A stretch of 63,575 nt of DNA, counting the filler, from Atractiella rhizophila (taxonomy: Eukaryota): the NCBI GenBank assembly GCA_021432655.1. It is 5 parts of 4 records of this genome, joined end to end, with 100 filler letters (N's around TTAATTAATTAA, not from the genome) between each part and the next. Parts side by side here need not be neighbours in the genome. Positions count along the whole stretch, not along the records: positions 14,662 to 29,124 come from MU271208.1; 4 more parts are not named here. One strand, given 5' to 3'. The number at the start of each line of letters is the position of its first letter. Positions within the stretch are counted from its first letter, which is position 1. The position numbers and the translations under genes are program-made. The notes beneath the pieces were generated by a model. The model was not told the origin of the DNA and made no database searches. It worked only from the letters and a program-made list of their open reading frames with translations. Positions 12,839-59,615 of this stretch are shown here, one piece after another.

Positions 12839-13403
12839 NNNNNNNNNNNNNNNNNNNNNNNNNNNNNNNNNNNNNNNNNNNNNNNNNNNNNNNNNNNNNN
12901 NNNNNNNNNNNNNNNNNNNNNNNNNNNNNNNNNNNNNNNNNNNNNNNNNNNNNNNNNNNNNNNNNNNNNNNNNNNNNNNNNNNNNNNNNNNNNNNNNNNN
13001 NNNNNNNNNNNNNNNNNNNNNNNNNNNNNNNNNNNNNNNNNNNNNNNNNNNNNNNNNNNNNNNNNNNNNNNNNNNNNNNNNNNNNNNNNNNNNNNNNNNN
13101 NNNNNNNNNNNNNNNNNNNNNNNNNNNNNNNNNNNNNNNNNNNNNNNNNNNNNNNNNNNNNNNNNNNNNNNNNNNNNNNNNNNNNNNNNNNNNNNNNNNN
13201 NNNNNNNNNNNNNNNNNNNNNNNNNNNNNNNNNNNNNNNNNNNNNNNNNNNNNNNNNNNNNNNNNNNNNNNNNNNNNNNNNNNNNNNNNNNNNNNNNNNN
13301 NNNNNNNNNNNNNNNNNNNNNNNNNNNNNNNNNNNNNNNNNNNNNNNNNNNNNNNNNNNNNNNNNNNNNNNNNNNNNNNNNNNNNNNNNNNNNNNNNNNN
13401 NNN
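12839..13403. other. Scaffold gap, 565 N
   Basis: Run of N without linker. Confidence 1.
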
Positions 13404-14561: not shown

Positions 14562-14661
14562 NNNNNNNNNNNNNNNNNNNNNNNNNNNNNNNNNNNNNNN
14601 NNNNNTTAATTAATTAANNNNNNNNNNNNNNNNNNNNNNNNNNNNNNNNNNNNNNNNNNNN
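14562..14661. other. Artificial contig linker
   Basis: 44 N + TTAATTAATTAA (stops in six frames) + 44 N. Confidence 0.99.
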
Positions 14662-15800: not shown

Positions 15801-16125
15801 AACTCAACCAGGTTCTTTCGCTCCCAAAGGTCTATCCTCGACGCGAATAATGTCGGAATACTCTTGGATGGGATTGTGACGGAACCAGTCAGCCCTATGT
15901 ATGTCTCTATGTCTGAGGAAGGGCTGACGGTAATGCAGGTATAAGAGATGATGGTGAGAGGAAGAACCCCAAGAAGTTGCTTCTACCTGTGAACTCGATG
16001 TCAAAACATCACGTAGAAAGAAAGCAGGACGATGACGCCTTCCAAAGCTGGCGCTGATTCTTCAGCAGACGATTGGATCAAGAAGCCTGTTAAACCGTAC
16101 CAGCCCATCATCAGCAAGGAAGATG

Positions 16126-16670
16126 TGTCAGGTTTGCATCTTACGCAAATCGGCGCCTGTTCGCCACTCTGCGTCCCCCGTCGCCACTCTGCGTCCCCCG
16201 TCGCCACTCTGCGTCCCCCGTCGCCACTCTGCGTCCCCCGTCGCCACTCTGCGTCCCCCGTCGCCACTCTGCGTCCCCCGTCGCCACTCTGCGTCCCCCG
16301 TCGCCACTCTGCGTCCCCCGTCGCCTATTTGCACGCAGTGCAAATCGGCGCCTGGTCGCCGTTCGCCCATTTGCGCCTGCATCACCACTTAGCCCATTTG
16401 TGTCTATTCTCCTCTTATTAACTCCGCGTAATCCCACTGTCACTTTCCCCTTTTAGTTCTCTTACATGTTTCATCTGCTCTCCTCTACACCCTGTGGCAG
16501 TGTTATTCCGCTTGTATATATAGATCAGAGAGTAGTGGAGGTGAACTCAGAGTATTCTCTTAGGTTTATCTCCACTACAGGTTAGTCTTCATGTCATATC
16601 ATGCACTTAGGTTTATCACTACTACAGACGCATCACCCGTCGGCGACCGCACATAGTGTCAGCCCTAACA
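16126..16670 (+). mobile_element. Ty3/Gypsy solo LTR with 5-bp target-site duplication AGATG
   Basis: TGTCAGG...GTGTCAGCCCTAACA termini match the full-length element's LTR; AGATG at 16121-16125 and 16671-16675. Confidence 0.95.
16161..16325 (+). repeat. Minisatellite, 8 perfect copies of TCGCCACTCTGCGTCCCCCG, inside solo-LTR U3
   Basis: Directly counted, no spacers. Confidence 0.97.
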
Positions 16671-19410
16671 AGATGCTGACGAGCTTGGGATCTTTTGGGA
16701 ACGCAAGCAAGCTGCAGCCTGCGCGTAACTGGGATTCAGAACAATCTCCTCGATCCGGTACAGGTGCTGCACCAGCTTGTCTGTGACGAAACGGACAATA
16801 CAGTCGTCGCAGCAACACAACTGTCGAGGAGAACCACCGATGTCATACGAAATGATGCGACATTCTACACGAAATCCTATCTGGACACTACGAAATCGAT
16901 TAAGAACCAGACTGGACTCCGCAGGACCACATATCTCCCGAATATCCTTCGTAGGCTCGAGGCAGATTACAAGCTCGGTTCTCTGCCTTGGGAAGACTAA
17001 CTGGATGGCACGTATCTTCGTAACAGCTGTGCTAAGGAATACCAGGGGAAGTTCATACAACAACGAAGATGAGCAGGACTCTGGGGATGCCCAGGAAGGA
17101 GGCTGGACTGTTATGAGAGGAGTGAAGAGGAAGCAGGATGCCGATGGGTTTGTGGGTTCGAGGGAAAAAAGAAATCGAGTGCAGATTTTTGAAGGAGATC
17201 AGGGTAAGCAGCTCTCATTAACGTGAACTTAAAAGGGATTGTACTAAACAGCCCAGTGGAAGGTCTATGAGTACCAGAGAATTTGAAGATGCAGAGCGAG
17301 AAGAGAGCGAGAGCCATCATGCGCACACATCCTTTATGTGTCACAGACCCCACTCTACTGATTCATTTGTTTTCTATCAGGCTGACTTGCCAAATGATCC
17401 ACTCAGGGCAAACACGACTCGGACCAGTCAGGACAAGGTAGTTAAGAAAACCTATCCACCGGGCATCATTAAGGCAGCATCAGTTTGTCCTCTTCTTTTG
17501 GCCATATCGCCTTCTGACAGGATGATAGATGAGCTCAAAGCTATTGTTATCGATGACCGCTGTCTCACTACCCTCAATGTACTCGGCATGTTCGTTGTAG
17601 ATGGAGTACTGCCTCTCTTCCATGCTGATTCCCACACAAACGACAGTGATACGCTTGCCCAAACGACTACGAAACGCCTTCTAGCAGCTATTACATGTGT
17701 GGAATATGATGTCAAGCTTCCAATCAATACTGACGACGAAGAGTACACCTCTGAGGACCTGCGAAACAACGCTCGAGAGGATACACTTGGCCACAACAGC
17801 CTTGGGGAGGAGACCCTGTTCAGCTTGAGGAGATGGGAGAATGTGGGTTCGCAGGAAGCGATTGGAGAGCTGCTGCAAGCTGTGTTAAAGGGTGCAAAGA
17901 TCGCACAACGGTTGTGTCAGCGATGGAGGAAGGACATCCTGATTCGACTCAGGCGGCACCTTTACTTCTGAGCTTTAGCTGCATTGGGAGATTGGCAGAC
18001 AGTATGGTCAAAGCTTGGCTGGATGGAGGTGGGAGCAATGCTGTGACCATGAAGTCTTTTCTTACTCTTGCAAGATGCGATTTAAGCTGATTTGGTACAA
18101 GGATGCACAATCAGCCAAAGAACTCAAGGGAACCATGGTGCCGGCTGAATATTCGAAAGCACTCCAAGATAAGATGCAGCTTCAAGATCGCCTTGCGGAT
18201 TCGATCAAGATTGCAAAAGAGAAGGCTTCCGAAGTCGAACAACGTCAGACTTATCATCCCCCTCCGCACCGCACCGGTTGTGGTCTCCCTTATCCTCCCC
18301 CACATACTTACGGTTCTGCTCCTCCCATTTGTGCCAGCCACGGTTCCCTCCTGCTGAGCATGGACTCAGTCCTGCTCCTCCTCCACGTTGCAATGACGAT
18401 GCTCCTGCACCTGTAGTTGACACCAATCCCATTTCATCCATTCTGTGGAGGCAGGTGGCGCTACCAATCCTTCTCTGGCTCATCTGGATAGTGGTGGTCT
18501 CTTCCCTTTCTACATCCGCTCTGCACCGCTGAAGCTGGAACAGGGGCAAGTGAATGAAGGCACTGTGGGCAAGAATAAGAGAGGGAGGGCAAAGAAGATC
18601 GCTGAGGGTACAGGTGGGCCATCTCCGGATGAAGTTGCGAAGGTGCGTGAGGATGTGGAGAAACTGCGGCCGCTGCTGGACAAGCCGGATTCCATGGCAC
18701 AACTGGTCGAGGCAAAAAAAATGGCGAAGGACAGTGGCTGGAACGCGGATCATTGGAAAAAGATGTTACAACATCAGATAAGCGTTGACTTTCTCCTGGT
18801 TAAGTCCTTACGGCAGTTTAGGAGTATAACAAGGAAGTCATGATTACGAAATTCAATTCCATCGATAGAAGAATAATGGAACTTCTCAGGCTGCTTAAGT
18901 CGGACCAGGACAAAGAGAGTGCTGGTAACAATGCAAGCGGAAGTGGCAGAGGTAGTGGTGTAGATTCTGCAGGGAGGGCAGAGGGGCGACTGCTACGAAG
19001 ACGACGATAATAAGGAGGGATCGAGGAGGATAATGTCATTGAGCGGAGTAGAATGGGGAGGGGCTGGAGACGGATTAGAGTGAACAGGGGCATGTTGGAC
19101 GGATGGCATTGGCATTGTAATTTGAGGATAGGGCAATGTAATGCGATTATCCATTTCAAGAGAAAAATCTAGCAAACCTAGGCAGTGACTGAGACACGAA
19201 TAGAACAGGGCTAGACGCGCACTGGCGAAGCACTGATTCTCGACACTGAGGCAACACTGACAAGGCACACGATGGGCACTAAAAGCACCAAAGGTGCGCA
19301 CTGCTGTGGAGCCAAATTTCGGCCCTAAACCTGCTCTCAGCATGCACTGTTTTAGCTGGTAGTGCCTTGAGTGGCTAGGTCAGCACTAAGCCAGCCCTGC
19401 AAGGTTCCAG

Positions 19411-19910: not shown

Positions 19911-21779
19911 GCTGGCTCCAAGGGAGACCAAACATGACTGGAAAGGAAACTTGCACGAAAAAGTGGCGGCACTTACAGAGCTCCAGCTCGCAGTTCTCGA
20001 CGTCACTCCAAGTGGTGCTTCCCTGTCACAGGCTTCCGATGTAAGCACGGCGGAATATCGAGAGGAGTGTGAAGACCGACCACCCGCAACTTCTGGTGTC
20101 AATGTTGAACCCGGAAAAGAGAGACCTGTAGATGTATCAACCGCGAAAACGAAACACTTCAAGTTATTGGCCGAAGATACAGAACTCCAGAGGTTGTGCA
20201 CGCAGGTGAGGGATGAAGATGGGCGGCTGAAGCGTTGACAAAGATGGAAGTCACTATATATTCTACAGCGCTGAGCTTGCTGAGGATCAGGCATGGTGTC
20301 TAGGCTAAGCCAGCTGAAAGATAGAACTCTCTCTTTTTCTCTATACAATCATCCTACAAATGGTTTGCTTTTCCAACGAGATAGAGGGGTGGTGCCAATT
20401 GGGCTATGCACCAAAAATTTCGCTGGCTTTTGAGAATCCCGAAAATGTAAAAGTCGAAAGAGCGAGATATATATTGGATGGCACTTGGAATAGTCCAAAG
20501 AGGCTACCTGGCCCAGCAGGGTCCTAAATGGTACCATGAGTCACACAAACGTGGGACCACGTATTTTGTGATTTAACAGCCCAACTCTGTCCACCTCACC
20601 CTTTCTACAACCCTAGACTCATATAAAGATGTCAGATATGTTGATGGCATTGTAAACTCAAGAGCTGCCATGCTCATCATAGCCGCAGCTATTTGTTAAT
20701 ACAGATTTGATGTGCTCATAGCTCTGGAAAAAGGAGAGGAAGATGTACGAAAGCACCAAGGAGAGTGAAGAGGAGTATATGAACTGTTTGTCAAAACCTA
20801 TCATTAACAGAGCTCGGGAGTTAAGTTAGGATTGTGAACCTGAGATTTGTGTGGTTCACACGTGTTTTCAAAAGTCAAAAGTATGAAAGTGCCACGAACG
20901 GCCCAGACATGGGCCTCTGGCTCGACTTTCGCACTTTCGACTTTTAGATTCAACAGTTGCTATTTACAGGCACTTCAGACTACAGGAACGTGGTATTTGG
21001 GTGGTGATCAAAGTCGACCACTTGCTCCTTTCTCAAAAGCCAGCGATATTTTGAACACCGCTAGTCGTATGCCTTTGCCTTTGCATCAGACAACTCCCAG
21101 ATCTGATTGTCTCCCTGCTCCACAGTCTCTGTGCCTCTCATTCTAGTAATCCATTCTATGAAACTGGACTTCCGTCGTCCGTGGCCTTGTACTGAACAGT
21201 TACATCACAGAGATAGTGCACTTTCACCACATCATCCCTGATTTGCGTGCAGACAGCTAGAATGGCCGCGGTTCGTACCTCGATGGGAACTTCATGACAA
21301 AACACAGCAACTTGGGACATCAGAGCCAATGCCATGTCTGGTTCAGAAACTCTTGCTAGGTGGACGACCACAACTCCATCCATGGAGGATCCTTGAACCT
21401 CAGCTTCTTGCTTGAGGGCCTCTCATCTTCTGACGTAAGGGTCCTGTAGCAACACACCTCAAACCAGTACTTTGTCTTAGGCAAAGGAGAGTAGAACTTT
21501 CTGACGATGTGGTTGTGGGCAACTAGGAATGAGGAACCCAGGAAATCTGACATGGATGTCATCCCTGTTAACCATTGCTGTAATGGTTAACCCTAACCCT
21601 AACCTCACACATTATAGGAGATACTGGAACCTTCTGGAACCTCTTAGAACAATCTAGGACATTACTCTGGAATATGACAGAACAGTCTCTCCAGCAAGCA
21701 CCTTGCCTTCTGCAAGCAAAATGTGCAAAGTGCTTCAGCTGGCCAGAAGAGTAAGTGGCCACCTCAATGAGCCGAACCC

Positions 21780-22380
21780 ATTTTGAGCACCCAACCTTCG
21801 GTTCGCCATGGGAGAAAGAAGTGCTTACCCAGTTGGGTTTCGTACAGTCTACCATAGACGAAGGGGTGTACATTCTGTATGAGGACGGCAACACTCTCAT
21901 TCTCTGTCTCTACGTTGATAATGGACTAGTCGTTGGAAGCTCACACACCCTCATGGATTCCATCTTTCAAAAGTTGGGCGAATTCGTCTCCTTATGGGCT
22001 GGAGCGGTGTCCATGTTCTTGGGAATCCAGATCGAGGCGAAAGATGGATTGAGCATGGCAAAGATACAGCAAGGAGGCTATGCTAGGAAGATAGTGCAGC
22101 AATACCTGGGGGATGACGTATCCCCAGTCCAGATGCCATGCGAATCCAACAAACAACTCTCCCCCGAAATGTCACCCAAATCAGCTAAAGAACGAGAGAG
22201 CATGCGACATATACCTTACTGAGAGGCTGTTGGAGCGCTTATCTATCTTACAACATGCACACGCCCTAATATTGCTTACACCATTTGCGAGGTAACACGT
22301 TACTGTGACAATCCAGGACTAGACCACTGGCACGCAGTTATGTCTCCAGCAGTCTAGATCACGGATTAGTCTATGATGGA
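21780..22380 (+). mobile_element. Ty1/Copia reverse transcriptase fragment, degenerate
   Basis: LGFVQSTIDEGVY..LCLYVDNGLVVG..FLGIQI..PY*EAVGALIYL..TRPNIAY..DHWHAV. Confidence 0.88.
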
Positions 22381-24108: not shown

Positions 24109-25290
24109 CTAACCCTTCTCCCACTTCGCCTCCAACAGTTCCCTACTGAATCCAAGAATAGATTGTCTTATGGCGGTCATCACTTCTTCTATGACGTCCT
24201 TGAATGCCAGCGCAGTCGTGAGTTCGAGATGCTCCACAGTCCTCTCTGATCCAATCACCGACTTTCTGGCCTTAATCCACACTGAAAGTTTGTGGAGCGG
24301 CACTCTATCAAGGTTGGGAGAGGAATCGTCCGCGTTTGTCGGGGGTCATAGTGCCAGGCGCGTAAGAGGCTGTTGTCCACAGAAGAACGTAGATGATTGA
24401 CCCATATCGTCCTGTACTTCATGATCAGGCACAATGCTCTCGAAGAGCCGCATGGACATAAACTCCTCTGTTCCCTATCATGCCGTCAGTAATGTCATTC
24501 GTACTGAACAACCACATTTACAGTTCGCTCATTCACCTCAGATGTGTCCTCTCCCACCTTAGCCAACTCCCAGCCTGAGCCACCAAGGAAACCGCGTCCG
24601 TTCTCGTAAAAAAGAATGGATACATCTCTATGAAGGATCGAAACTTGACCATTGGAGGAATCGAAGTATTTCTGATGATCTAAAGCGGCCAGATGGGTAC
24701 GACCTTGGTGTTGTCGAGAAAATTTACACACCTTCAAGGCATCAGCCAGAGTCTGAGCGAAGCACTTCGTGGATGGGCACTCCCACAGCAGACAGCCGAC
24801 CTCGTCCAAAACCAATCGATAGCGACGGAGAGATTTCTCCCCTGCAGAAGCGAGCTGCAAAATTCCAGGGACATCACTATGGGCGACGGGTTTCAGAACG
24901 TGCGGCACCCCTTTCTCTTTCAACAGCTCGTAAATTTCTCCTTCGGCCTTAGCGTATCCGACGTTGCGCCACGTATCTTTCAAGGAAACTTGCTGTTCTT
25001 CGTCGAGGTCTCCATTTGGATCGAATCCTCGAAAGTACCTCGTGTCGCGACCGACTGGGACGTTATGCTGGGAGGTAAACGGTGTCGAAACGTGACGGTG
25101 ACTGTGAAAGCTGGAGCGACTGGTTGTACGTCGGGGGCGTTACTTTTATTTGATTTGACTTGGGCACTAGACTCGATTGTGGAGAGGTCGGAGCCCTGTG
25201 GAAAGTCCCAACTGGTTTTTGGACAATTACCAGAGCAGGTTCTGTACCTGACTTGAGTCTGGTGAAGTTGCAGAAAACGGGGTGAATCCA
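24109..25290 (-). pseudogene. FunK1 fungal-type protein kinase pseudogene
   Basis: ATRGT, KDTWR..AEGEIYELL..GVPHV, YRLVLDEVG, ILHRDVS (NIL deleted), WELAK, ERT-GT.EFMS, HEVQDD; frameshifts. Confidence 0.85.
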
Positions 25291-25297
25291 GGTAGTT

Positions 25298-27140
25298 TGT
25301 AAAGGGAGTGAGAAATTGACTTTCTATCACTTTGCGCTAACAATCCCCAATCACTGATCAGTGAGTACAAATGATATAAATGAATATGTGATTTCAGTAT
25401 AAGTAATCGTACATACCTAACAATCCCCAATCACTTATTAGTGAGTGCAAATGATATAAACAAATATGTGATTGGGGAGAAGAAAAGGAAAGAAAACACA
25501 TCGAGCATCCTTATAAGTCCGGACTAGCGGTGAAGTGCACATGTTTGGTATGGCATCCGGAACGCAATGCAAATAGAACAAACAGATGACATCCACCGAT
25601 CTTCAACACTCCGCCTCACTTCGCCGCTCCGCTTCCTGCTTTATCTGCTTCCCGCTTTATTCACTCCCACATCCTCCGCACCGTATACCATCTCGTGAGC
25701 CCCATGATGGAACAGAAACGCCAATGAGTTGTGGCCGCCAATCCCTTTGTAAGCATGTCAGCGGCTTGTTGACGAGTCGGTATCCAGTGAAGAATAACAG
25801 TGCCAGCATCGACCTTCTCCCGCTTGAAGTGGTAGTGTACAGCGATGTGCTTCGTCTGCGCATGTGCCGTCAGGTGAGAAGCCAGCTGTATCGCTCCTTG
25901 ATTATCGCCCCATATCAGTGTCGGCTGCACTTATGGAAATCCCAAGTCGGAGAACAGCCTGCGCAGCCATACTGCCTCTCGAGTGGCAATGGACATGGCA
26001 ATGTACTCGCCTTCTGTTGAGGAGACAGCCACGCTCAACTGTCGTTTCGATACCCACGAAACCGCCCCACCAGCATTTCAGAACAGTACACCAGAGACAG
26101 ACCGTCATGCCGTAGGGTCCACTGCATGGTCCGCATTGATGAACGTACTCCATGAATCTTTTTCCACCATTGCCGCCCTGCCTGACATAGCCTGTACAGT
26201 GCCTTCCCTAACTCATAGACACCTTTCGGGCGTTCCTCGTCAATGAAACCTGGTGGCTGTTTGACGAACACTTGTTCTTCGAGGTCACCATTCAGAAAAG
26301 CGTTGCTGACGTCGAATTGTCGCCTGATCCATCCCTTTTGGGCTAAGATGGATAGTACTGCTCTGACAGACGCAGTCCGCACGGTTGGTGCCAAAGTCTC
26401 CGTGTAGTCTAGGCCTGCATTTTGCTGATCACCTCATACAACTTGGCGCGCATTGTACTTTATCACCTCCCCTCCCGGATCGTGCTTCACCGTGAGCACC
26501 CACTTGACACCTATTGCCTTTCTCCCCATAGGTAGCTCCTTCAATTCACCTTTCCACGTCCCCATTAACTCGAGCGCCGCTATCTCCACTACCATCACAG
26601 CCAGCCACTTATCATGGTCAGGTCCAGTGATTGCTTGCTTGAACATTGGTTCATTGACACTGCCTATCCAGTAGATTTGTGGTCTTCATAATTGTTCATA
26701 TCCTCTTCAAGCGTAACATTGTAGACTGATGGATTTCGTTTCACCTCCACCGCCAGTTCCCTTGCAGGTGTGACGACTTCATCATATCCATACACTTGAG
26801 AATAGTATGGACCTCGCTCGTGTAGTTTCTTGTAATCCCACATATTTCGTCCTGTACGACGCATCCTTCTCCCCAGCCGTTGTTGTCGTTGCGGGGAGAA
26901 CCATGTGATTTCTTCTTCTTGGACCCTCGCCTTCCATGTGGATGCTTCGATTTGCGCACCTCGATCTTGGACAAATGAGGGGTCCCCTTCTGGAGGTCTT
27001 AGCGTGTCAGTGGTAGCTGGTCCTCCCCCTTGTTCTACTGCCCCTTGAGTGTTGTCTAAGTGCTTTCTTGATGGGGTAGGAGATTCTGGTATGTCAGGTA
27101 TCGTATGGCTTGATGCTCGAACATCGTCTGCTTCCATCTC
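25298..27140 (-). mobile_element. Ty1/Copia remnant: partial RT, RNase H, PPT and 3' LTR (25298-25608)
   Basis: KAIGVKWVL, QFDVSNAFLNGDLEE, SSTEGEY, GDNQGAI, TKHIAVHYHF, ADMLTKGL; purine tract GAAGTGAGGCGGAG, then TGTTGAAG...CCCTTTACA. Confidence 0.9.
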
Positions 27141-28492: not shown

Positions 28493-28856
28493 TGTCAGGT
28501 TTGCATCTTACGCAAATCGGCGCCCGTTCGCCGGATTGCGTCTCCTATCGCCCATTTGCGTTCCCTGCGAATCGGAGCCCGGTCGCCACTGCGTCTCCCG
28601 TCGCCTATTTGCACGCAGTGCAAATCGGCGCCCGTTCGCCCGTTCGCCCATTTGCGCCTACATCACCACTTAGCCCAATTGTGCCTATCCTCCTCTTATT
28701 AACTCCGCGTAATCCCACTGTCACTTCCCCTTCTAGTTCTCTTACATGTTTCATCTGCTCTCCTCTACGCTCTGTGGCAGTGTTATTCCGCTTGTATATA
28801 TAGATCAGAGAGTAGTGGAGGTGACCTCAGAGTATTCTCTTAGGTTTATCTCCACT
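28493..28856 (+). mobile_element. 3'-truncated Gypsy LTR, same subfamily as 16126-16670
   Basis: Near-identical U3, TATA and hairpin; similarity stops at TCTCCACT. Confidence 0.92.
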
Positions 28857-29124: not shown

Positions 29125-29224
29125 NNNNNNNNNNNNNNNNNNNNNNNNNNNNNNNNNNNNNNNNNNNNTTAATTAATTAANNNNNNNNNNNNNNNNNNNN
29201 NNNNNNNNNNNNNNNNNNNNNNNN
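29125..29224. other. Artificial contig linker
   Basis: Same 100-bp linker. Confidence 0.99.
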
Positions 29225-36646: not shown

Positions 36647-37013
36647 CGGAGGATATCAGAGCAATGTCTTGAAAACAGGGATCAAGTTATCTGGAGGTAG
36701 TCTCAAGAGGACACCTCCCATTTATATCCCTCAGCCTGTAGTGCGCGTCCTCCATGAGGTGCCTCTTTGTCACAGGCGTTGTCCCTTCAACTGTTGTGAA
36801 CATTTCATGAAAGATGTTCCCTCTCTTTGTTGTTCACAGTCTGGAGCTTATCCTCCGTGTACATTTATCAAGGTCCCTTTTTCTCGTTCCCTCCACCTGG
36901 TAGTTTCTTTGACCTTGTGTACCTTTTCACTAAACGATTCACACAAGTATTTAAGATACCCTACTTTGCTCCCCTAACTGATCATCGACTTGACATAGCA
37001 ATAATCTGTTAGT

Positions 37014-39159
37014 ATGGACTCCCTAGAATTGCAATCTACGGAATCGGTTTGCTTCGTCGACAATTTTCGTTTACAGGCATTCATCACGCCGCTTTCGCCA
37101 CCAGAGCGACCGGAGGATGCGAATGCTCAATCTTACGTATGGCATGAAGATGCTTTGGGTCATTGCTCTCAGGAAGGCGGGATATTTCCTTACCTTCACA
37201 GCTGGCCGCGGCGTGAAACGGATAAGGGTACCGAGGTTACGTATTATGACCACTTCGTAAAAGATCTGGATCTCCTCCCTAGCAACGTCAAAGCAGCATT
37301 CTGGCATGACATGATTGTCTGGAATTCAGTGGACCGGTAAGTGCCTTTTCATATACAGGAAATGCGACTTACGACAGCTGTTAGCCCTGAACGTACAACC
37401 CAATTTGTAGAAGACCTGAGAGTGTTCCTTCGCTACATGTATCCTGGAAGAGCACCCGGTCCTCCGACTGTTCAAGTAGAGAAAGGTAGGTCGACATTGA
37501 TTAGTGTCGTAATGATTGACATTCGTCATAGTGGAACCCATGGACGTGGACATCATACACCTCAAGTGTCAAGATGAGGTTCTTCTCACGTTCATCTTGC
37601 TGGTAAGTCCATCCCTCAATTGCTTGCAAGTGTAGTCCTCAGTCATGCTGCAGCCAGCTAATTCCTTGGTCCCTGAGGACTGGGAGACCGATACGCTAGA
37701 TGAATCTAACAAGATTGCACGGAACTATATATCATTTCTGGCCACGTTGCCAGCTGACTCGAATGGGCATCGGTTTGCGGCTTTCATGGATTTCAAATCG
37801 TCGGTGCTCTTCCGTGGATCTTACAAGTTTATTTGCACTTTTGAGGCTCACCCATATTTCCAAGTTTTCGCACTCATGAGTGAGGTGTTCTCCATCAAAT
37901 GGGACTGTTCGAAGTACTCTAACCAAACAGGACCTGCCTGCTTCCCTCGAACCCTTGTCTCCGGCTGTGCGAGAGATCCTGCGACGAGGGTACACATAGA
38001 CCTGTCCCCCGTGTTAGCATCTTCGGAACACGATCTTTACGAAGTTCAGACGGGAGATCCCTACTTACAACATCTCTTTATGTACTGGCACCAATTGCGA
38101 ATGGAGGAAGGCGAGCGATGGCTCGATAATTTGACTTTCGTTGACACAGATATCACCGTTGCGTCAGTGCTATCGACCACGACCAGCCATACCATTTTCC
38201 CTCCGTTGGTTCTAACGGCAGATAATCCAACGTTGCTATGGTTCCAAAACATCTTATTCCAAGCTACCAGCTCTACCCGCCGTGCTTCTCCTTCCTTCTC
38301 AGCCCTCAACGTCGGCGATCGAATCAAGCTTATCAGCTCAATCCGTTCAGGCCCTCAACTACATGGTCAGACTTTCCTTGTGGGTGTTGAAGGAGAAGAT
38401 TATCCCTTTGTGCTCAAGATTTATGACGAGCGCTTATTTCCTTATCCGAAATGGGACATGGATTACGAAGGCATCGATCGACTCCGGCGATGGCCTGATG
38501 CTGAGGCGTCGATGCGGAAGGAAGAGAATGCCTATTCGGTTTTGCGGTTGCTTCAAGGATCAGCTATTGCGAGATCTTATGGGTTTTATAACGTTTGTAT
38601 TTGCTTACGTTTTTGAAAAGCGTTGTCCTTCCTGACACACGCATTAGGTCAAATTAGGAGATGGCACCATCTGTCAAGCACACTTAATGGAATACGTGGA
38701 AGGACCCACGCTGGACAGAGCAGATGTGCACACACTTTCCGACGAAGAACAAGACGCCTTCGTAAGCCTGATCTCCCATTTCATTAAAGCTAACACACCT
38801 TGCAGTATGTCAAAGCAATGGTTCTAATTGGCGTAATCTTTCTCTTGGGAATTGTGCACGGCGATTTGGAGTACGAACCACACCAAGTGTTATGTCCACC
38901 AACAGCACCAGGTCGCTCGCCTGACATCGTTCTTCTCGACTTTGGGATGGCTAATGAAGTTCATATTGACGAGACAACTCTGCTATCGGAAGACGCCTGG
39001 GACTTTCATGTTACTGAAGATTTTGCAAATTTCAGCGCCATGGTTAGCATTGCTCTCCAGCCGGATGCCAGCAAACGTCGAGGAGGTGCACCTGCAGAGA
39101 TCTGGGAAAAATTGAGGGAAATGAAGTGGGGCTATTTCGACATAGATTGGAAATTGTGA
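37014..39159 (+). CDS. Atypical protein-kinase-like protein, about 6 exons, apparently intact
   Basis: FVLKIYDE, MRKEENAYSVLRLLQGSAIARSYGFY, LMEYVEGPTL, GIVHGDL, IVLLDFGMA; canonical short introns. Confidence 0.85.
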
Positions 39160-41190: not shown

Positions 41191-42635
41191 ACTGTGTTAT
41201 TGATTCCCTCGTAGCGTCCTCCTCTAAAGTCCCATCATCCTGAAAGAAAAACAAACCAACTTTCTGACACGGGATGACCGTCACGTCAATTCAGACTCAC
41301 CCTATCCCGTGTCTGGCTGCTCAAAGAGAATCATATTCGAATTTGGTGCCAAAATACCTCATTTCGACGATATTGACGCGTCCACAGATTCCTATCGCGT
41401 CAGACTGTAAAATGCGGAACATCCTATGGAGCGTGTTTCAAAGGTGCCTTCGTCCCAGTTTAGTCGATAGGGGTATCGAAGTTTACAGGAAGAGTTTGAC
41501 GCGTCGATTGTGGATGTGAGGGGCGAAATTGTCGACTTTGTCGTTTGGGGACGGTGGTTAGTGGTGCTCAGACTTAGACTTCCCGTGCGCAAACAACCAA
41601 CTCTAGCACCTTCGACCTTCAAATCTGGATGACCTGAACAATGTGTCTAGGTTGTACCACAAATTTAAAGGTGGATACTCTCCACTCGGTCTGCCATCAG
41701 ACACATTCCACAAATCAAGCTGACCAATCCAGACACTGTCAAAGGAGTTCACTTTCGGCTTCTCTCCATCCGACCCCTTCCTTCTCTTGATCGGTTGTCC
41801 CCCTTGTGAGCTACAGTCTCTGAGTGGTGGCAGATGGGACTCTGCTCCAGTAGCAGCGGAATGAGTGGGGTAATGATTTGTTCAGAGATAAAATTGCAAT
41901 AAGATAACTTGCTTTAGTTCTACTTCATACAGTCTAATATGTTAAACAGTCAAACATGCCGAATAGTGTTATGATAAGCACAGAGCGCTAGAGCTAAGCT
42001 TCATAAATTAAAGATTCTTAACCGAAACTTTGCCTTTCTGAAGGAGCACACGTTCTACAAGGACATCCTTCGTGCCTTTTGCATCCAATCCAAAAGACTG
42101 TTCCCAGAGTTAAGTCAGCTACCAAGCTACGAAACGGAGTAGAACAGAGTTACGAGCAAAGCTTGCTTTAGAAGTGGGATAGTCGTCTTTAATCTACAGG
42201 CTTCATCGTCTCCTGCTAAGAGAAACGTCCAAATTGGTGATGCAGACATCTTGCCAGGCTTTTCAGAATGGACATAGACGGTCCCTTTGGATTCGAGCTG
42301 AACCGCCTTTCTGCCTGCTTTCCTCTTCCCATCAGAAACATTACCCCCAGGAGTAGAATTGGACTTGGTAGAAAGCTCTATTTGAGAACTTGGCGCATCG
42401 AAGGAGACGGTGCCAGTGGAAGCAGGAGTTGTAATTATCTTTGGGAAGGTCGTACGTGTCAACGTGTGTTTATTCCCATTGTTGCGTAGCAGCTGGACTG
42501 GAGCTGGCAGTTTCGTGGATCCTTTCTTCGGCATCTCAGATGGTATGGAAAGAGTAGAAACAGAGGCTGTCGTCTGAGAATCAGTTGGGGTCGTAGTGGG
42601 GACCGCCGTAGCGGCTGCGGCCATGAGAAGCACAT

Positions 42636-43076
42636 TGTCAGGCTTGCCCCTACGCATTACCGAAATGCACCTTCTGGAGTCACGTGACCTACTTTACCAT
42701 GCATAGGATCACGCACCTGCCCATCGCCGCTTTGCTCACGTTCACGCCGATCGCCGCTTTCCCCTGTCTCACACGAATCGCCGCTCAGCAAACCTTAAAC
42801 ATTTCGCCGGTCTGTATCATCTCCATTATTACCTTTATTGTCCTTTCTCACTTGTACTGCTTAGTATGTCTTATTTCCGAGTATTCCCTTTATTGCTTTC
42901 CTGATCCAACTATCTTACATGTTTCAAGAAACGTATGTTACAGTTTATGGCAGTGCCCTTACATATATATATATACATCGAGATGTAGTGGTGGTGACCT
43001 CAGAGTATTCTCTTAGGTTTACCTCCACTACAGACGCATCGCCTATCGGCGACCGCACATAGTGTCAGCCCTAACA
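42636..43076 (+). repeat. 5' LTR
   Basis: Identical by eye to 50874-51314; TA run 42962-42975; GTCACGTGAC palindrome at 42679. Confidence 0.98.
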
Positions 43077-43078
43077 GA

Positions 43079-43088
43079 AGAATACTCT
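43079..43088 (+). promoter_or_regulatory. Self-priming primer-binding site (Tf1/sushi type)
   Basis: AGAATACTCT is the exact reverse complement of LTR 43002-43011 AGAGTATTCT; no TGG tRNA-type PBS. Confidence 0.85.
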
Positions 43089-43117
43089 CTCTCATTTTCA
43101 AAACCAAAGTTAAAAAA

Positions 43118-44415
43118 ATGTCGGAGGTTTGGGGAGATATGGAAACGCGCGAACCGCCGACCAGCGAGGAACGCATCCAGCACTTAGAAAGGATGTTCCA
43201 AACTCTACACCTCACAACTGAAAAACAATTCAAAAAACTCGAACAAGACCTCATAACAAGCTTCAACCAACAAAATGCGCAAACCTCCCAGAATGCGAAC
43301 GAAATTGCGCAACTGAGGTCCGACGTCCAAAACACAAATGACCGAATTTTACAATTGCTAGACTCCAGACTACCCCTCCTAGAGATAGTGGGACCACTTC
43401 CCCCTTTTTATCGCGAACAGACCCAATACCTCAGGCTTACCCTTCTCCCTCTATACCCCAAACTGCCCAAGTTGCACCATATGCAGGTATCAAACTTGCC
43501 CCACCTTCAATCTTCAAAGGAGTACCCAACACAGCTCCGACATTTTTACGCGAAATTTACGTCTACACGTCTACTGTTCCAGGCCAATTCCCGACCGAAA
43601 AATCGAAAATCCTATTTACCCTTTCTTACATGAAAGAAGGAGATGCGGAAAAATTCGCCGCTGGGATTTTGCGCCGACTTGTCGAAAACGAGGAACAAAT
43701 TTCGTGGGAACAATTTTTGTCGGAGTTCAAAGCGCGTTTCTGCAAGACAGACCACAAGCTCATTGCGCAGACAAAAATATCATCCCTCCAACAAAAAGGG
43801 AACCTAGAAACCTACATCATCAAGTTTGAAGAATTGGCAAATCAAGCTGATTTTGATGATGAAGCCCTCATTTTTTTCTTCAAACGGGGACTCAATCCTG
43901 CCCTACACCTCAAAGTAACCCAAGGGGAGTTCCCAAAATCGCTGGAAGACTGGAAAGAAAAATCTCGGCGAATTGATGCGGAAGAATCTGCTCATTCAAC
44001 CTTCTTTCAAAACATCCCATCGGCGAAAGACGGACCACAAAATACATTTTCTGCAAAAAGAGACAGCTCAAAATCCTCAAAGCACAGAGAGAACAGAACG
44101 CCAGTATCGTATCGACCGAGCGCCGCATTGTCACCGGCCGCCGATCCGCCACCCAATGCCGCTCCACACGCTCATAGGGCCAAAGACCCCGATGACATGG
44201 AAGTTGACGCGACAAAGTCTAGACCTCCCCGTTGCAGGCGATGCCAGAAGATAGGACACCGAGAAAGAGAGTGTAGAACGATTATGAGCAAGGAGCAATA
44301 TCTTCGGGCCCAAGGAGAATATTTTGATTCGAAAATGATACATCTCGGACAATTCGCCGACCAGTCGCCGAAAACGAGTGCTACCCAATCGAAAGATCTT
44401 GAGGAGGATTTTTAG
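43118..44415 (+). CDS. gag: Gag with CCHC zinc knuckle, frame discontinuity near 43318-43380
   Basis: Second frame, open from 43342, has KLAPPSIFKG..KSKILFTLSYMKEGDA, DDMEVDA and CRRCQKIGHREREC; ATG 43118 is in another frame. Confidence 0.9.
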
Positions 44416-44486
44416 GACGGCGGTGGGTGGAAGAAGTGTCCCCATCGCCGAATTGCAATTCATTTACGTCACATAAAATCACTTCC
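44406..44486 (+). promoter_or_regulatory. -1 ribosomal frameshift signal between gag and pol
   Basis: G GAT TTT before the gag stop, 5-nt spacer, 10-bp stem 44418-44427/44441-44450; pol is in the -1 frame. Confidence 0.85.
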
Positions 44487-47400
44487 AACAAGATGCCGCC
44501 CAGCACAGTATTCCCCCCACGAGAACAAGACCCCCCATTCCCGAAGTTGCGTTTTCCCTCCTGGAGACAAAGATGCGCAGAAGTCGCAAAAATGTATGAC
44601 AAAGTCCACCTACGCTCGACTACAGCATCCCTCGTCAGTTCGAAGACGAAGCTCAGAACCGCATTCCACCATCCACATTCCCATCGCCGACACGCCACAT
44701 CGGCGCTCGTCGACAGCGGCGCAACTACTTCTTTCATTTCTCCAAAACTCGTTTCTGCATACAACCTACCTGTCACTCAACTTCCCTCCCCAGTACCTGT
44801 TTATAACATCGACGGATCCCTCAATCAAGGAGGATCCATCCACTCTGTTACTTACTTGCCCATTTCGATCGCCGCTCACCATGAAGTTTGGCAATTCGCT
44901 GTAGCGGAGTTAGGGACTGTCGACATGATTTTAGGCCACGACTGGCTAAGACACCACAACCCAGAGATCAACTGGGACTCAGGGAAAGTTGAGTTCTCTC
45001 GCTGCCCTACCAGTTGCAATGCAGATGACGTGTCTACCACTCGCGAAAAATTCCCGCCATCATCTACCTCGATACGAGCCGCTATGACAAAATCGCAGAA
45101 ACTGGCGAAAGACGCAGCGGCGATGAGACCAAAAAATGTCGTCGAAATACCAACGCAAATCGCCGATTTTGCAGACATCTTCGACGACGAAAAATTCAAA
45201 ACTTCTCTTCCTCCCCGACATCCTTGGGATCACGCGATCAACCTCATACCCGAAGCACGACCATATGCGGGACCGGTCTACCCCTTGAAAAGAGACGAAC
45301 AAGCGGCGCTCGACCAATTCATTGACGCCGAACTAAGCGCCGGCCGTATACGTCCTAGCACAGGTGAACATGGAGCCTCAGTTTTCTTCACGCACAAAAA
45401 AGACTCATCTGAACTTCGTCCCCTTTTCGATTATCGGAAGCTGAACGAAGCCACAGTCAAAGACAAGACCCCACTCCCCATTCAGGCTGACCTCTTTTCC
45501 ATGGTCTCAGGTAAAAAGTTCTTCAGCAAGATTGATCTGAGGAAAGGGTTCAACAACGTTCGTATCAAAGAAGGAGACGAACACAAAGCGGCGTTTCGCA
45601 CAAATCGAGGACTTTTCGAACCATTGGTAATGTATTTCGGACTCTGCAACTCACCGGCGACTTTCCAAGCTTTCCTGAACTCTATTTTCCGCACTATGAT
45701 CGCCACTGCGTTCATCTTCATATACATAGACGACATCCTAATTGCGACAGAAACTGAAGAAGAACACTGGGAACGCGTTCGACAAGTTTGTCAAGTTTTA
45801 CGCGAAAATGGGCTTTATGTCAACTTACAGAAATGTGTCTGGTGTCAAAGCGAAGTAGAGTATCTAGGTTTGATCATTACCAGCAGAGGGATCGAACCGG
45901 ATCCAGTAAAAGTTGCAGGAGTGATGGATTGGCCGGAACCGAAGAACATGAAGGAAGTCCAAATGTTCCTCGGTTTCGCTAATTTCTATCGCCGCTTTTG
46001 CGACAGATTTAGTCACATCGCAAGACCTTTATATGAACTGACCAAAAAGGGGATTTCCTGGGTCTGGGGGGTAGATGAACGACGTTCGTTCGCCGCTCTG
46101 AAGCAGCTCATGACTTCTGCGCCCGTTTTGGCACATCCCGAACAAATAGGACGATTTTTGCTTGAAGTCGATGCGTCAAATTTCGCGACAGGCGCTGTTT
46201 TGTCGCAAATGAAGCCAGATGGGAAGTTTCATCCTCTCGGTTTCGTATCAAAATCGCTCGACGCTGCCCAGAGGAACTATGACACCTACGACAAAGAAAT
46301 GCTCGCAATTATGCGAGGACTGCAAGAATGGAGACACCTTCTTCAAGGTACTGATGAGCCATTTCTGATCTTGACCGATCACAAAAATCTTGAGTATTTC
46401 AGGATGCCACAAAAGTTGAATCGGCGACAGGCACGCTGGATCACCGAACTTGCATCTTTCAACTTCACTCTTTTACACCGTCCTGGACGAAACTCCGCAA
46501 AACCAGATGCGCTCAGTCGGCGACCGGATCACAAACCGGCGACTTGCGACAACTTTGACGTAGTATTACTCCCAGAACGTTTTTTCAACACGGATCGTAT
46601 CACGATCAACGCGACTGGGAGCGCAGTTGCGCTCACTAGACAAATGTCAGAGTTGAGTATACTGGAACGTGTGAAAAAGGTACCTGAACGGGAAGAACAA
46701 GTAGTCAAAGCCTTGAGAGAGATCCTAGACGAACCAGTCGACGCAATTCGCCGACGGGAGTGGCAAGAAGTTGACGGCGCTGTCTACTTTCGAGGGAAAC
46801 TTTACATTCCCCGAGACGACGAAATTCGCCGCTCGATTTTGCAAGACCTGCACGATTCGCAAATCGCCGGTCATCCAGGTGTAAAATCAACGACGGCTCT
46901 CATAAAAAGGTACTACTGGTGGCCGGGTATGGCGCATTACGTTCGCCGCTATGTCGGCGCCTGTCACACTTGCCACAGAACAAAAAACTTTCCTTCCCCA
47001 CCTGTCGGGTTTTTGCAACCAAATGACATTCCCACGCGTCGATGGCAAATTGTCAGCATGGACTTGGTTGGACCACTCCCAGAATCTGGGGGGTTTGACA
47101 CGATTTTCGTCATAGTAGACAGACTCTCAAAACGCACCCATCTCATCCCCACCCATTCGACGATGGATGCAGAAGGCCTTGCAAGACTTTTTCGCGATCA
47201 CGTATGGAAGCTACATGGACTTTTCGATGTCGCAATTTTTGATCGAGGCAAAGAGTTTGTGTCCAAATTCACATCCGCGCTTTTTCGCCTATTGGGTATC
47301 AAAGGCTCACCATCGACAGCCTATCACCCGCAAAGTGATGGTCAGACTGAACGCATGAACCAAGAGGTTGAACAATATTTGCGCATTTTCTGCAATCACC

Positions 47401-48206
47401 TTCAAGATAATTGGGTAGAAGGACTTCCCAACGCAGAATTTGCGCTCAACAATCGCGTCAGTTCGGCGACGGGCGTAACTCCATTTTCGCTCGATTGCGG
47501 TCAACATCCCCGCATGGCCTTTGAACCCATCTCCGACGAGGACGTTCCCGCGGCGGCGCAATTCGTCGAAAAGATGCAAATCGCCGACCGGGAAGCACAA
47601 GCGGCACTCGAGCAAGCAGCAGATCTCATGGCAAAACATTATGACAGAAAGCGCGCACCGGCGCCCGAATATCATGTCGGCGATTTCGTCTGGTTGAGCG
47701 CGAAAAACATCAAATCGACGAGACCTGTCAAGAAGTTAGACGACAAATGGCATGGCCCTTTTCGTGTTTTGCAAGTTTTGGGTCCCCTCAACCTTAAACT
47801 CGAGTTGCCATCCTCATGGAAGATACATCCAGTGTTCCATGTAGGTCTAATACGAAAAGTCAACGAAGACGACATCCCGGGCAGAGTCCAGTTGCCCAAA
47901 CCACCTCCAGAATTGGTGAACGGAATTGAAGAATGGGAAGTGGAGAAAATTGTCGATGGAAAATGGTTCGGTACCCGAAATAGAGTTTTCAAATATCGCG
48001 TTCGATACAAAGGGTATTCACCATCTGAGGACGAGTGGATCAACATCGCAGATCTAGAAAATTCGCAGGACGCTATAAAAGACTATCACACTGCACACCC
48101 TCTCGCAGTTCATCCCAATTCCATACCGAACTCCGCAAAAAATCGCCCAAATGCACGTTTTCGTAACCTTCGACGAAAACACGCTGAAGGGTCTTCCTCA
48201 CTTTAA
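44427..48206 (+). CDS. pol: Pol: protease, RT, RNase H, integrase, chromodomain; intact
   Basis: LVDSGA, DYRKLN, YIDDIL, VDASNF, HHCC, SMDLV/FDRG/QTERMN, GPF, WEVEKIV..YRVRYKGY..DEW. Confidence 0.99.
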   Translation: MEEVSPSPNCNSFTSHKITSNKMPPSTVFPPREQDPPFPKLRFPSWRQRCAEVAKMYDKVHLRSTTASLVSSKTKLRTAFHHPHSHRRHATSALVDSGATTSFISPKLVSAYNLPVTQLPSPVPVYNIDGSLNQGGSIHSVTYLPISIAAHHEVWQFAVAELGTVDMILGHDWLRHHNPEINWDSGKVEFSRCPTSCNADDVSTTREKFPPSSTSIRAAMTKSQKLAKDAAAMRPKNVVEIPTQIADFADIFDDEKFKTSLPPRHPWDHAINLIPEARPYAGPVYPLKRDEQAALDQFIDAELSAGRIRPSTGEHGASVFFTHKKDSSELRPLFDYRKLNEATVKDKTPLPIQADLFSMVSGKKFFSKIDLRKGFNNVRIKEGDEHKAAFRTNRGLFEPLVMYFGLCNSPATFQAFLNSIFRTMIATAFIFIYIDDILIATETEEEHWERVRQVCQVLRENGLYVNLQKCVWCQSEVEYLGLIITSRGIEPDPVKVAGVMDWPEPKNMKEVQMFLGFANFYRRFCDRFSHIARPLYELTKKGISWVWGVDERRSFAALKQLMTSAPVLAHPEQIGRFLLEVDASNFATGAVLSQMKPDGKFHPLGFVSKSLDAAQRNYDTYDKEMLAIMRGLQEWRHLLQGTDEPFLILTDHKNLEYFRMPQKLNRRQARWITELASFNFTLLHRPGRNSAKPDALSRRPDHKPATCDNFDVVLLPERFFNTDRITINATGSAVALTRQMSELSILERVKKVPEREEQVVKALREILDEPVDAIRRREWQEVDGAVYFRGKLYIPRDDEIRRSILQDLHDSQIAGHPGVKSTTALIKRYYWWPGMAHYVRRYVGACHTCHRTKNFPSPPVGFLQPNDIPTRRWQIVSMDLVGPLPESGGFDTIFVIVDRLSKRTHLIPTHSTMDAEGLARLFRDHVWKLHGLFDVAIFDRGKEFVSKFTSALFRLLGIKGSPSTAYHPQSDGQTERMNQEVEQYLRIFCNHLQDNWVEGLPNAEFALNNRVSSATGVTPFSLDCGQHPRMAFEPISDEDVPAAAQFVEKMQIADREAQAALEQAADLMAKHYDRKRAPAPEYHVGDFVWLSAKNIKSTRPVKKLDDKWHGPFRVLQVLGPLNLKLELPSSWKIHPVFHVGLIRKVNEDDIPGRVQLPKPPPELVNGIEEWEVEKIVDGKWFGTRNRVFKYRVRYKGYSPSEDEWINIADLENSQDAIKDYHTAHPLAVHPNSIPNSAKNRPNARFRNLRRKHAEGSSSL

Positions 48207-48560
48207 GGGGTCCAACACCCCTATATGCCTTGCCGGGTGAAATCCTAGTCTTTGAGACTTAGGTCAAGGCAAGGCGCCGACTTGCTCCTCAACGGGCAAG
48301 TCGGCGACTTGGTCGTGGGTGAGTCCATTCGTCGCCCGTCAAAGACAAATGCTCATTGCGTTCTCGCACCATCACCAATGTCGCATTTACGAAAATTGTC
48401 CTCAATCGCGAGGTCCCCTCCCCCTCACTTTAAGAGGTCCTACTCCTCTATATGCCTCGCTGGGTGAATCCCTAGTCACACTGTTGAACATAGGTCTAAG
48501 CGAGGCGCCGGTCTGTTCCTCAACGGACAGATCGGCGACCGGTTTGTCGGTGAGTTACTC
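48196..48560 (+). ncRNA. Two copies (227-bp period) of a candidate structured cis-RNA element after the pol stop
   Basis: Three helices with compensatory substitutions between copies; loops conserved. Confidence 0.65.
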
Positions 48561-49264
48561 ACCCCATTATCACAAACGGTTGCTTACTGCACCAAAAACA
48601 ACACCGGTCAAACTTCAAAAAATCCCTCAATTGCGAGGTACACGATGACTTCCCCTCATCCTACACTCTGTTTTGGTTTTGATGATTATTGTTTCCTGTT
48701 TTTGCTTTTACATTTTGCTTCCCATCCTTGTTCGCTCGACAACACATTCTTCCACAAAGAAGACAGACCAGCGACGAGCACGCAAATCGCCGACACGTTA
48801 TACTGCGCGTTGTGTCCACGAACGCGTGGCCCGGGCCTATTTGGTTGCGAGCTCCATAATAAGCTTGGGTAGCTAGTGGGAGGAACACCTGAGGGTCCTC
48901 CCCTAGACAGGGGAGTGTGAGTCCTGCATCACCCACTTGGCCATTGCTCTCCTCACTCACCACAATGCCTTATGCCACCATGACACGATTTACACTTGTC
49001 GCCGCCTGGCGATTCGCCGCTGTTACGGAGGCGCAAAACGAATACATTTCAGAGATCAAAATCACCACTCTGGACTGACTCCTCACTATCGCTGCTGCTC
49101 GAAGAAGAAACGGAATGTGCATCATAATTGGAATTGTCATAGGCCTCTTGGGCTAAAGAAGGATTTAAGTCGCCCAGTCGAAACTCAATTTCGCCGATAC
49201 GACGTATTTTCTGCAACTGGCGATGGGTCAGGTGCCCTACGATGCCTAAACAACATCTAGATAG

Positions 49265-50749: not shown

Positions 50750-50873
50750 TTTTGCAAGAATGGAAGCAGGGTGATGGTGGTAGAACTGGAAAAATTTTTC
50801 GCCCAAGCTAGCCGCAAACCTTAACTTTAAAATTCCGTGACTCACGTACACGAGTCAGTAATTTGGGGGGTGT

Positions 50874-51314
50874 TGTCAGGCTTGCCCCTACGCATTACCG
50901 AAATGCACCTTCTGGAGTCACGTGACCTACTTTACCATGCATAGGATCACGCACCTGCCCATCGCCGCTTTGCTCACGTTCACGCCGATCGCCGCTTTCC
51001 CCTGTCTCACACGAATCGCCGCTCAGCAAACCTTAAACATTTCGCCGGTCTGTATCATCTCCATTATTACCTTTATTGTCCTTTCTCACTTGTACTGCTT
51101 AGTATGTCTTATTTCCGAGTATTCCCTTTATTGCTTTCCTGATCCAACTATCTTACATGTTTCAAGAAACGTATGTTACAGTTTATGGCAGTGCCCTTAC
51201 ATATATATATATACATCGAGATGTAGTGGTGGTGACCTCAGAGTATTCTCTTAGGTTTACCTCCACTACAGACGCATCGCCTATCGGCGACCGCACATAG
51301 TGTCAGCCCTAACA
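50874..51314 (+). repeat. 3' LTR
   Basis: Identical by eye to the 5' LTR; preceded by GGGGGGTGT. Confidence 0.98.
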
Positions 51315-56742: not shown

Positions 56743-57100
56743 TGTCAGGCTTTGTGAATCCACACCCAGTTGCCTGTTCGCCTATTTGCACTCTCATCAC
56801 TGCTCTGTATCTCCTGTCACCCATTTGTATTCTGTGCAAGTTGGCGCCTCTTTACACTTCTATCGCAACTATGCTTTTCCTTTTTGGTTCTCTTACATGT
56901 TTCATATACTCTCCTCTACACTTTGTAGCAGTGTGATTCCGCTTGGATATAGATCGGAGATAAGTGGAGGTGACCTTAGAGTGTTCTCTTAGGTTTATCT
57001 CCACTACAGGTTAGTCTTCTCATGTCATATCATGCACTTAGGTTTATCTCCACTACAGACGCATCACCCATTGGTGAGTGTATATAATGTCAGCCCTAAC
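56743..57100 (+). mobile_element. Decayed Gypsy LTR, intron-containing variant
   Basis: TGTCAGGC...TGTCAGCCCTAAC; hairpin and 22-bp direct repeat as in 16126-16670. Confidence 0.9.
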
Positions 57101-57124
57101 TCAGTGCACTATCAAACCAGCTTT

Positions 57125-59515: not shown

Positions 59516-59615
59516 NNNNNNNNNNNNNNNNNNNNNNNNNNNNNNNNNNNNNNNNNNNNTTAATTAATTAANNNNNNNNNNNNNNNNNNNNNNNNNNNNN
59601 NNNNNNNNNNNNNNN
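59516..59615. other. Artificial contig linker
   Basis: Same 100-bp linker. Confidence 0.99.

Follow-up and report, generated by a model that had tools for sequence, protein, structure and literature searches.

A conserved, intron-like R-region insert with a direct repeat in the LTRs of a Tf1-type self-priming chromovirus of Atractiella rhizophila

Sense-strand introns are expected to be lost when a retroelement passes through spliced RNA, and in Ty1 and in retrotransposition reporters a spliced template gives rise to intron-less progeny. Sense-strand introns of the spliceosomal type are carried by plant Ogre and Penelope-like elements in their internal or coding regions, and we know of no flanking repeat that is able to rebuild them. 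HTLV-1 and the foamy viruses possess splice donors in R or in the leader, which are paired with distant acceptors for subgenomic mRNAs. Among retroelements, the closest described systems belong to the Tf1/sushi group (Tf1 and Tf2 of fission yeast), whose domain order with a C-terminal chromodomain is common to the element reported here and whose transcript has a 5' end complementary to a PBS just past the 5' LTR, as is also the case here (PMC10085805). For Tf1/Tf2, the portions of that source covered describe neither a duplication in R nor an insert resembling an intron, in contrast to the present element (PMC10085805). The closest engineered system is that of the split-intron retroviral vectors (Ismail et al. 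2000), in which an intron is assembled by reverse transcription (PMC3182074). These vectors resemble the locus in that LTR sequence of the 3' end is transferred to the 5' end by copying, but they are engineered, their donor lies in the 3' LTR and their acceptor downstream of the packaging signal, and, in the excerpts of that source, the intron arises a single time, in the target cell, with no rebuilding after splicing through an R repeat (PMC3182074). In the titles, abstracts and passages of the literature covered, neither a natural intron in an LTR R region nor one rebuilt by strand transfer was found.

The window analysed here is a stretch of 63,575 nucleotides of A. rhizophila DNA (assembly GCA_021432655.1), in which five LTRs of one family could be identified. 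The only intact element of the window (42636–51314, 8.7 kb) had LTRs that were 100% identical to each other and was flanked by a 5-bp target duplication, CACAT (42631–42635 and 51315–51319). Its pol protein of 1259 aa matched the Pfam families RVP_2, RVT_1, RT_RNaseH, Integrase_H2C2, rve, SH3_Tf2-1 and Chromo, and the closest Atlas clusters of pol were basidiomycete. The element is thus a Tf1/sushi-type self-priming Ty3/gypsy chromovirus, with the following features.

42636..43076, plus strand: 5' LTR of the intact element, subfamily B, insert-less (sequence, LTR alignment)
43002-43011, plus strand: primer AGAGTATTCT in the 5' LTR (complement of the PBS)
43012-43033, plus strand: X in the 5' LTR (sequence)
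43079..43088, plus strand: PBS AGAATACTCT, 2 nt past the end of the 5' LTR (10-bp duplex with the primer, fold)
43630..44415, plus strand: gag (Pfam Retrotrans_gag, 2.7e-14)
44427..48206, plus strand: pol with protease, RT, RNase H, integrase, SH3_Tf2-1 and chromodomain (Pfam)
50874..51314, plus strand: 3' LTR of the intact element, insert-less (LTR comparison)

An ORF of 171 aa located 5' of gag (43118–43633) matched no Pfam family. The stretch between pol and the 3' LTR is about 2.66 kb long (48207–50873) and contains an antisense ORF of 416 aa (49265–50515) with no Pfam match and an uninformative best Atlas score of 0.84 (recognition 1757). An internal repeat of approximately 130 nt, 77% identical between its copies, was present at 48196–48324 and 48423–48555. 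Elsewhere in the window, a second repeat family unrelated to the LTR family occurred at 36971–38056 and 57964–59040, about 21 kb apart, with 83–91% identity over at least 1 kb. Mobile or repeated genes, including two copia-type RT fragments, were recorded at 21755–22219 (+), 26038–26433 (-), 24498–25139 (-), 52609–55131 (+) and 57468–57821 (-), and the list further holds a FunK1-type fungal-kinase fragment and a long ORF with a sub-threshold match to tnp2 transposase. A run of 565 N was present at 12839–13403, and two blocks of 44 N with 12 bases between them in four places (14562–14661, 29125–29224, 59516–59615 and 61432–61531); all of these are probably gaps or withheld stretches.

The self-primer of 10 nt proposed in the preliminary description was confirmed, with AGAGTATTCT at 43002–43011 being exactly complementary to the PBS AGAATACTCT at 43079–43088. 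The predicted fold of the leader (43002–43125) contained this 10-bp primer:PBS duplex, prolonged where the first bases of X pair with the LTR end, and a further stem in which UAGUG of U5 is paired with the 3' part of X. The fold had a z value of -4.4, and 0 of 200 shuffles were as good; it agrees with the three-duplex pretzel that the excerpted source describes for Tf1 (PMC10085805). Since X pairs with the LTR end and with U5 in this predicted fold, its conservation is explained on the model by a reason unrelated to splicing.

The other three LTRs of the family fall outside the intact element, and two of them carry an insert downstream of X, as follows.

16126..16670, plus strand: LTR A, subfamily A, insert-plus, solo (sequence reading, LTR alignment)
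16515..16522, plus strand: TATATATA box (TATA), 27–34 nt 5' of the presumed transcript start AGAG (read from sequence)
16549..16558, plus strand: self-primer AGAGTATTCT of LTR A, 10 nt, start of R (complementary to the PBS of the intact element)
16559..16580, plus strand: X of LTR A, copy 1 of the 22-nt repeat, with CAG at its end (sequence, repeat search)
16581..16605, plus strand: filler of LTR A, 25 nt, with GTTAGT at its start as candidate splice donor (sequence, alignment)
16606..16627, plus strand: X' of LTR A, copy 2 of the repeat, with its CAG end as candidate acceptor (sequence, repeat search)
16628..16670, plus strand: U5-side end of LTR A, ACGCATC...CCCTAACA (sequence, LTR alignment)
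28493..28856, plus strand: LTR A', preceded by a purine-rich tract and ending abruptly inside X (repeat search, alignment)
56743..57101, plus strand: LTR C, subfamily C, insert-plus, solo (sequence, repeat search, LTR alignment)
56978-56987, plus strand: primer AGAGTGTTCT of LTR C (sequence)
56988-57009, plus strand: X of LTR C (sequence)
57010-57036, plus strand: filler of LTR C, 27 nt (sequence)
57037-57058, plus strand: X' of LTR C, identical to X (22/22)

The order primer, X, filler, X' and U5 that had been described for the LTRs at 16126 and 56743 was confirmed by sequence reading and alignment, as were the insert edges CAG/GTTAGT...CAG in both LTR A (47 nt, 16581–16627) and LTR C (49 nt, 57010–57058). 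X reads CTTAGGTTTATCTCCACTACAG, and X' of LTR A differs from it by 2 mismatches in 22. The transcript would start at AGAG, and the primers of LTR A and LTR C share the consensus AGAGT(A/G)TTCT. Subfamily A could be recognised by T at position 11 of X and by CACCCGTCGG in U5, and subfamily C by the primer AGAGTGTTCT and by CACCCATTGG in U5. LTR A is flanked by a 5-bp target duplication, AGATG (16121–16125 and 16671–16675), whereas no clear target duplication was found at the flanks of LTR C, next to which lies a degenerate gypsy pol fragment. LTR A' was 96–100% identical to LTR A over the U3-proximal part and over primer plus X. Joining the LTRs at 16126 and 28493 into one element was rejected, as no PBS follows 16670, no gag or pol lies between them and LTR A has its own target duplication. 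The U3 of LTR A also contains a perfect 20-nt minisatellite (16161–16325; 8.2 copies, 100% matches), of which only about one to two degenerate units are present at the same site of the LTR at 28493, despite the close kinship of the two.

Searching the window with the X 22-mer at up to 3 mismatches revealed 7 occurrences, every one inside LTRs of this family, and no match was obtained in shuffled sequence (0/100 shuffles). Across the whole window, the motif CAG/GTNAGT was present at 3 sites on the plus strand and at none on the minus strand; the third plus-strand occurrence, which has a YAG at intron distance downstream, lies outside both LTR inserts. An alternative GT..AG register (GTTTAT...ACTTAG) is also present.

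Comparison of LTR A with LTR C demonstrated unequal conservation along the LTR. Identity was 84/98 in the U3-proximal 100 nt, 31/32 in primer plus X, 45/47 in the insert (plus a 2-nt indel) and 34/43 in U5. The insert differed from U5 in identity (p = 0.023), and the filler, with 0 differences in 25 aligned bases besides the 2-nt indel, differed from the U3-proximal and U5 flanks, where 23/141 positions were changed (Fisher p = 0.027). The conserved block of the filler spans about 15 nt, which is longer than a 6-nt donor. Among the matches listed for window copies and family contigs, all five variants carried a donor-like hexamer, GTTAGT or GTCAGT. In these alignments the insert seems to be under more constraint than a neutral loop would be, which speaks against the reading preferred below. 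The arrangement exists as described, is tidy and conserved, and belongs to an element of the Tf1 type.

Copies of the family beyond the window were surveyed by aligning DNA contigs of four runs and three organism labels to positions 42400–50872. The family was very abundant in organism A (5689 and 3423 contigs aligned), where the coverage bin containing R reached about 10 times the summed depth of the internal bins, and insert-plus forms were present under all three organism labels. Among the matches listed, a contig of run X1 jumped back from 43033 to 43009 with 23 letters in between, the first of which read GTCAGT. Loose ends before 43006 reading CAG followed by GTTAGT... were seen in at least 6 X1 contigs and at least 3 X2 contigs. 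Record 14 of X8 had a 21-letter filler followed by 43006–43052 with 0 differences, and record 7 of X13 a 25-letter filler followed by 43012–43076 with 0 differences, at which point, the LTR end, the alignment stops. Filler length thus ranges from 21 to 27 nt, and the 3' half of the filler differs among family variants. None of the family contig matches listed showed an insert-plus 5' LTR that continues into a PBS.

Sequence differences in X1 family copies were mostly C>T (424) and G>A (404), against 257 A>G, 216 T>C and 37–77 of each transversion, and C>T and G>A also dominated in X2; this suggests that cytosine deamination, methylation- or RIP-like, may act on the family. Some X2 contigs ran from element sequence straight into TTAGGG-type telomere repeats, with loose ends at 43893 and 49693.

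The distribution of the insert outside the family was assessed in pol relatives from metagenomes (best 80 of 314 loci, 35–48% identity). Three metagenomic chromovirus families (L011/L012, L014/L015, L027, L037, L039, L048, L058, L061 and L064) possess a TATA box, a 9–10-nt primer and a PBS 0–2 nt past the LTR, and would be suited to comparisons of Tf1-type leaders. Seven copies of one such family had a primer-to-PBS spacing of 75–78 nt, a spread of only 3 nt. A direct repeat of at least 10 nt in the interval between primer and PBS was found in 0 of 11 leaders of these three distant self-priming families; because of this, the insert is best regarded, on the leaders compared, as a derived, family-specific gain and no general trait of the self-priming group. 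A 22-mer of primer plus X gave 0 matches in metagenome contigs, and an 18-mer scan of viral contigs gave 10 loci, all of them unrelated chance matches on inspection.

The reading that we prefer, to which a probability of about 0.5 may be given, is that the insert is a heritable duplication in the R region, made and lost at minus-strand transfer and perhaps also spliced. The insert would then be composed of a 21–27-nt filler and a second copy of the post-primer stretch, which in some members partly overlaps the primer. Transcription would begin at AGAG, and the first 10 nt of the transcript would pair with the PBS and be released as primer by RNase H at a putative cleavage site behind them. Minus-strand strong-stop DNA would copy U5, X', filler and X and would be transferred by homology to the 3' R, so that the insert would be copied like any other R sequence. 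With X present twice in R, two annealing registers would be available to the strong-stop DNA, and annealing on the upstream X would delete filler and X' and yield the insert-less form seen in subfamily B. The insert may be tolerated in that X keeps pairing with the LTR end by the PBS and X' keeps the U5 pairing; since both pairings are kept, the insert would amount to extra bases in the pretzel loop. A template-switch error may have been its origin. A simple tandem duplication of the 49 nt before the end of X was rejected, as the first 21 filler bases match at 8/21 positions by hand comparison, which is the level of chance; in the comparison of filler with upstream sequence, only the 6 bases preceding X' match, and these in some copies.

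Two further observations bear on an R-region duplication of this kind. The same insert occurs in LTRs with differing U3 (84/98 identity of LTR A and LTR C in the U3-proximal part, and LTR A and LTR B not alignable in the distal U3). As judged from these alignments, this fits lineages exchanging sequence at the U3-R border as the minus strand is transferred, where a jump to the co-packaged RNA of a different lineage would join the insert to another U3; exchange at this border is discussed for Tf elements in the excerpts of the source seen (PMC10085805). In several family copies, moreover, the second repeat takes in the primer bases TCT or TATTCT (3–6 nt), a 6-base match having a chance of about 1 in 4096. 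The preliminary description had taken X' as an exact copy of the 5' exon left after primer cleavage, and this stands for both window copies but not for several other family copies, in which the repeat reaches back 3 or 6 nt into the primer. Its start falls at 43012, 43009 or 43006 among the matches listed, and the repeat is therefore not tied to the cleavage site. Since the second repeat enters the primer in other copies, the founding event would not have been an exact copy of the post-cleavage 5' end, and the first duplication probably took in some of the primer.

A second argument had been that splicing of the insert-plus LTRs would yield exactly the LTR that the intact element has. The intact LTR does read X/ACGCATC at 43033/43034, but this is not independent, as any deletion between X and X' matches it; in LTR C, removal of an insert-length block at either of the GT..AG registers compared, r=5 and r=22, leaves the same product. 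Because splicing, recombination between X and X' and a register shift at strand transfer all converge on one product, the spliced form is no independent evidence for splicing. The comparison with Ty1-type intron loss is to be read in the same way: subfamily B would be such a loss product if the insert is an intron, but here any X/X' deletion gives the same product, which hence is no proof of splicing. Two of the three supports of the earlier interpretation are accordingly weaker than they appeared in these sequences, and the interpretation is still coherent. What remains as the real coincidence in the case is the good donor together with GT...AG ends. The donor claim held, CAG/GTTAGT agreeing with the U1-pairing consensus, a general standard, at 8 of 9 positions.

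The alternative that survives best, although we hold it to be somewhat unlikely, is that the insert is a real short 5'-UTR intron inherited in the ordinary way through unspliced RNA templates. Splicing would be partial and may aid mRNA accumulation, and fully spliced RNA would give insert-less progeny such as subfamily B. Its yardstick in the host was a single gene, a serine carboxypeptidase (S10) on the minus strand (61540–63370; Pfam PF00450 on two frames), and no other host gene usable for intron inference was found by Pfam over 113 stop-to-stop frames. This gene would have at least six short introns, extends past the analysed parts and abuts the N block at 61488–61531. Joining frames on reading frame and homology gave six putative introns of 55, 55, 49, 63, 65 and 64 nt (n = 6, one gene) with the donors GTGCGT, GTATTT, GTGCGT, GTAAGA, GTCAGT and GTCCGT in the same order and the acceptors CAG (3), TAG (2) and AAG (1); the joined frame was open and contained GGPGGSS and GESYGG. 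At 47 and 49 nt, against 49–65 nt in just six such introns of one host gene, the insert would lie at the short end of a small host sample and be otherwise unremarkable.

The ends of the insert, GT...AG, are likewise comparable with those of the host introns, one of which has the donor GTCAGT. The branch point had been called weak, and the only candidate was indeed CTTAG in X', 19 nt from the insert end, which counts against an intron but is no worse than the CTTAT of one host intron. The filler conserved between LTR A and LTR C and the GTNAGT retained in the five variants argue for an intron, whereas the conserved filler block is longer than a donor needs. Given the repeat, both the AG end and the exact spliced product are automatic. 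The young intact element manages without the insert, which is therefore dispensable. The premise that introns matter for expression in several basidiomycetes was borne out by the portions of the sources seen, in which introns increase expression in Cryptococcus, Armillaria and Ganoderma, good expression of basidiomycete genes often depending on an intron (PMC3744415, PMC4935854, PMC7017817, PMC8379801). Like Ogre and Penelope-like elements, element copies here would carry a sense-strand intron, with the difference that the insert sits in an LTR and is accompanied by a repeat. From its length and ends, the insert resembles the short introns of the host, and a fraction of the transcripts may well undergo its splicing; with every reading taken together, splicing of any kind comes a little short of an even chance on the present sequences.

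The interpretation offered in the preliminary description, a self-regenerating intron, appears unlikely. It holds that the 5' copy is spliced while the 3' copy stays unspliced by reason of polyadenylation near the end of X', and that the strong-stop DNA made on the spliced leader lands on X' and is extended through filler and X, which would rebuild the intron in both new LTRs; annealing on X instead would give the insert-less variant. Were only the 5' copy to be spliced, the cycle would follow logically, and every point in favour of an ordinary intron counts here too. It also fits self-priming, as after primer release the 3' end of the strong-stop DNA would be complementary to X in the window copies, and the split-intron vectors provide an engineered precedent in the excerpts seen (PMC3182074). 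In LTR C, X' is identical to X (22/22) although U5 differs from that of LTR A at 9/43 positions, as overwriting of X' predicts; X' of LTR A, however, differs from X at 2/22, and both the identity in LTR C and the divergence in LTR A are explicable by constraint on X. The poly(A) site is an assumption, as is the unequal splicing of two identical copies within a single RNA, and the start of the second repeat 3–6 nt into the primer elsewhere in the family does not suit the cycle. Nor was an insert-plus 5' LTR with PBS seen, the alignment of X13 record 7 ending at the LTR end. Such a cycle is, finally, unnecessary for the insert to persist: unspliced RNA alone would carry it through retrotransposition, and its persistence requires no regeneration.

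Another cis function in R, such as a donor used with a distant acceptor for subgenomic RNA, or signals for 3'-end formation or packaging, seems improbable. R-located splice donors serve subgenomic RNA in some retroviruses, and the candidate donor here, like those of HTLV-1 and the foamy viruses, lies near the transcript start and in both LTRs; the insert is conserved, and its position in R would place it at both RNA ends. In HTLV-1 and the foamy viruses the acceptors are distant, whereas here 47–49 nt separate donor from acceptor, both of them within the LTR. Neither an acceptor further downstream nor an additional gene was tied to insert-plus elements, of which the window contains no intact one, and the R-U5 of the insert-plus LTRs folded no better than shuffles (z = 0.11 and +1.28). 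These z values also ruled out an autonomous RNA structure of the insert. Chance resemblance or an assembly artefact, for which only the post-hoc nature of the find speaks, is most improbable in view of the two independent window copies, the same insert in contigs of four runs and three organism labels, and the absence of X from all 100 shuffles.

Were the insert spliced and rebuilt, it would represent a natural LTR design that both splices and keeps an intron, a new answer to the conflict between intron loss and intron-dependent expression, and a natural counterpart of the engineered split-intron vectors. It would allow intron-dependent expression in a basidiomycete without intron loss through RNA passage, and it could bear on how spliceosome-linked RNAi, as outlined in the excerpts of one source, perceives the transcripts of fungal transposons (PMC6643885). 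On the plainer reading as an R-region duplication, a repeat in R that begins at or near the self-primer would be a rare footprint of minus-strand transfer errors in Tf1-type elements.
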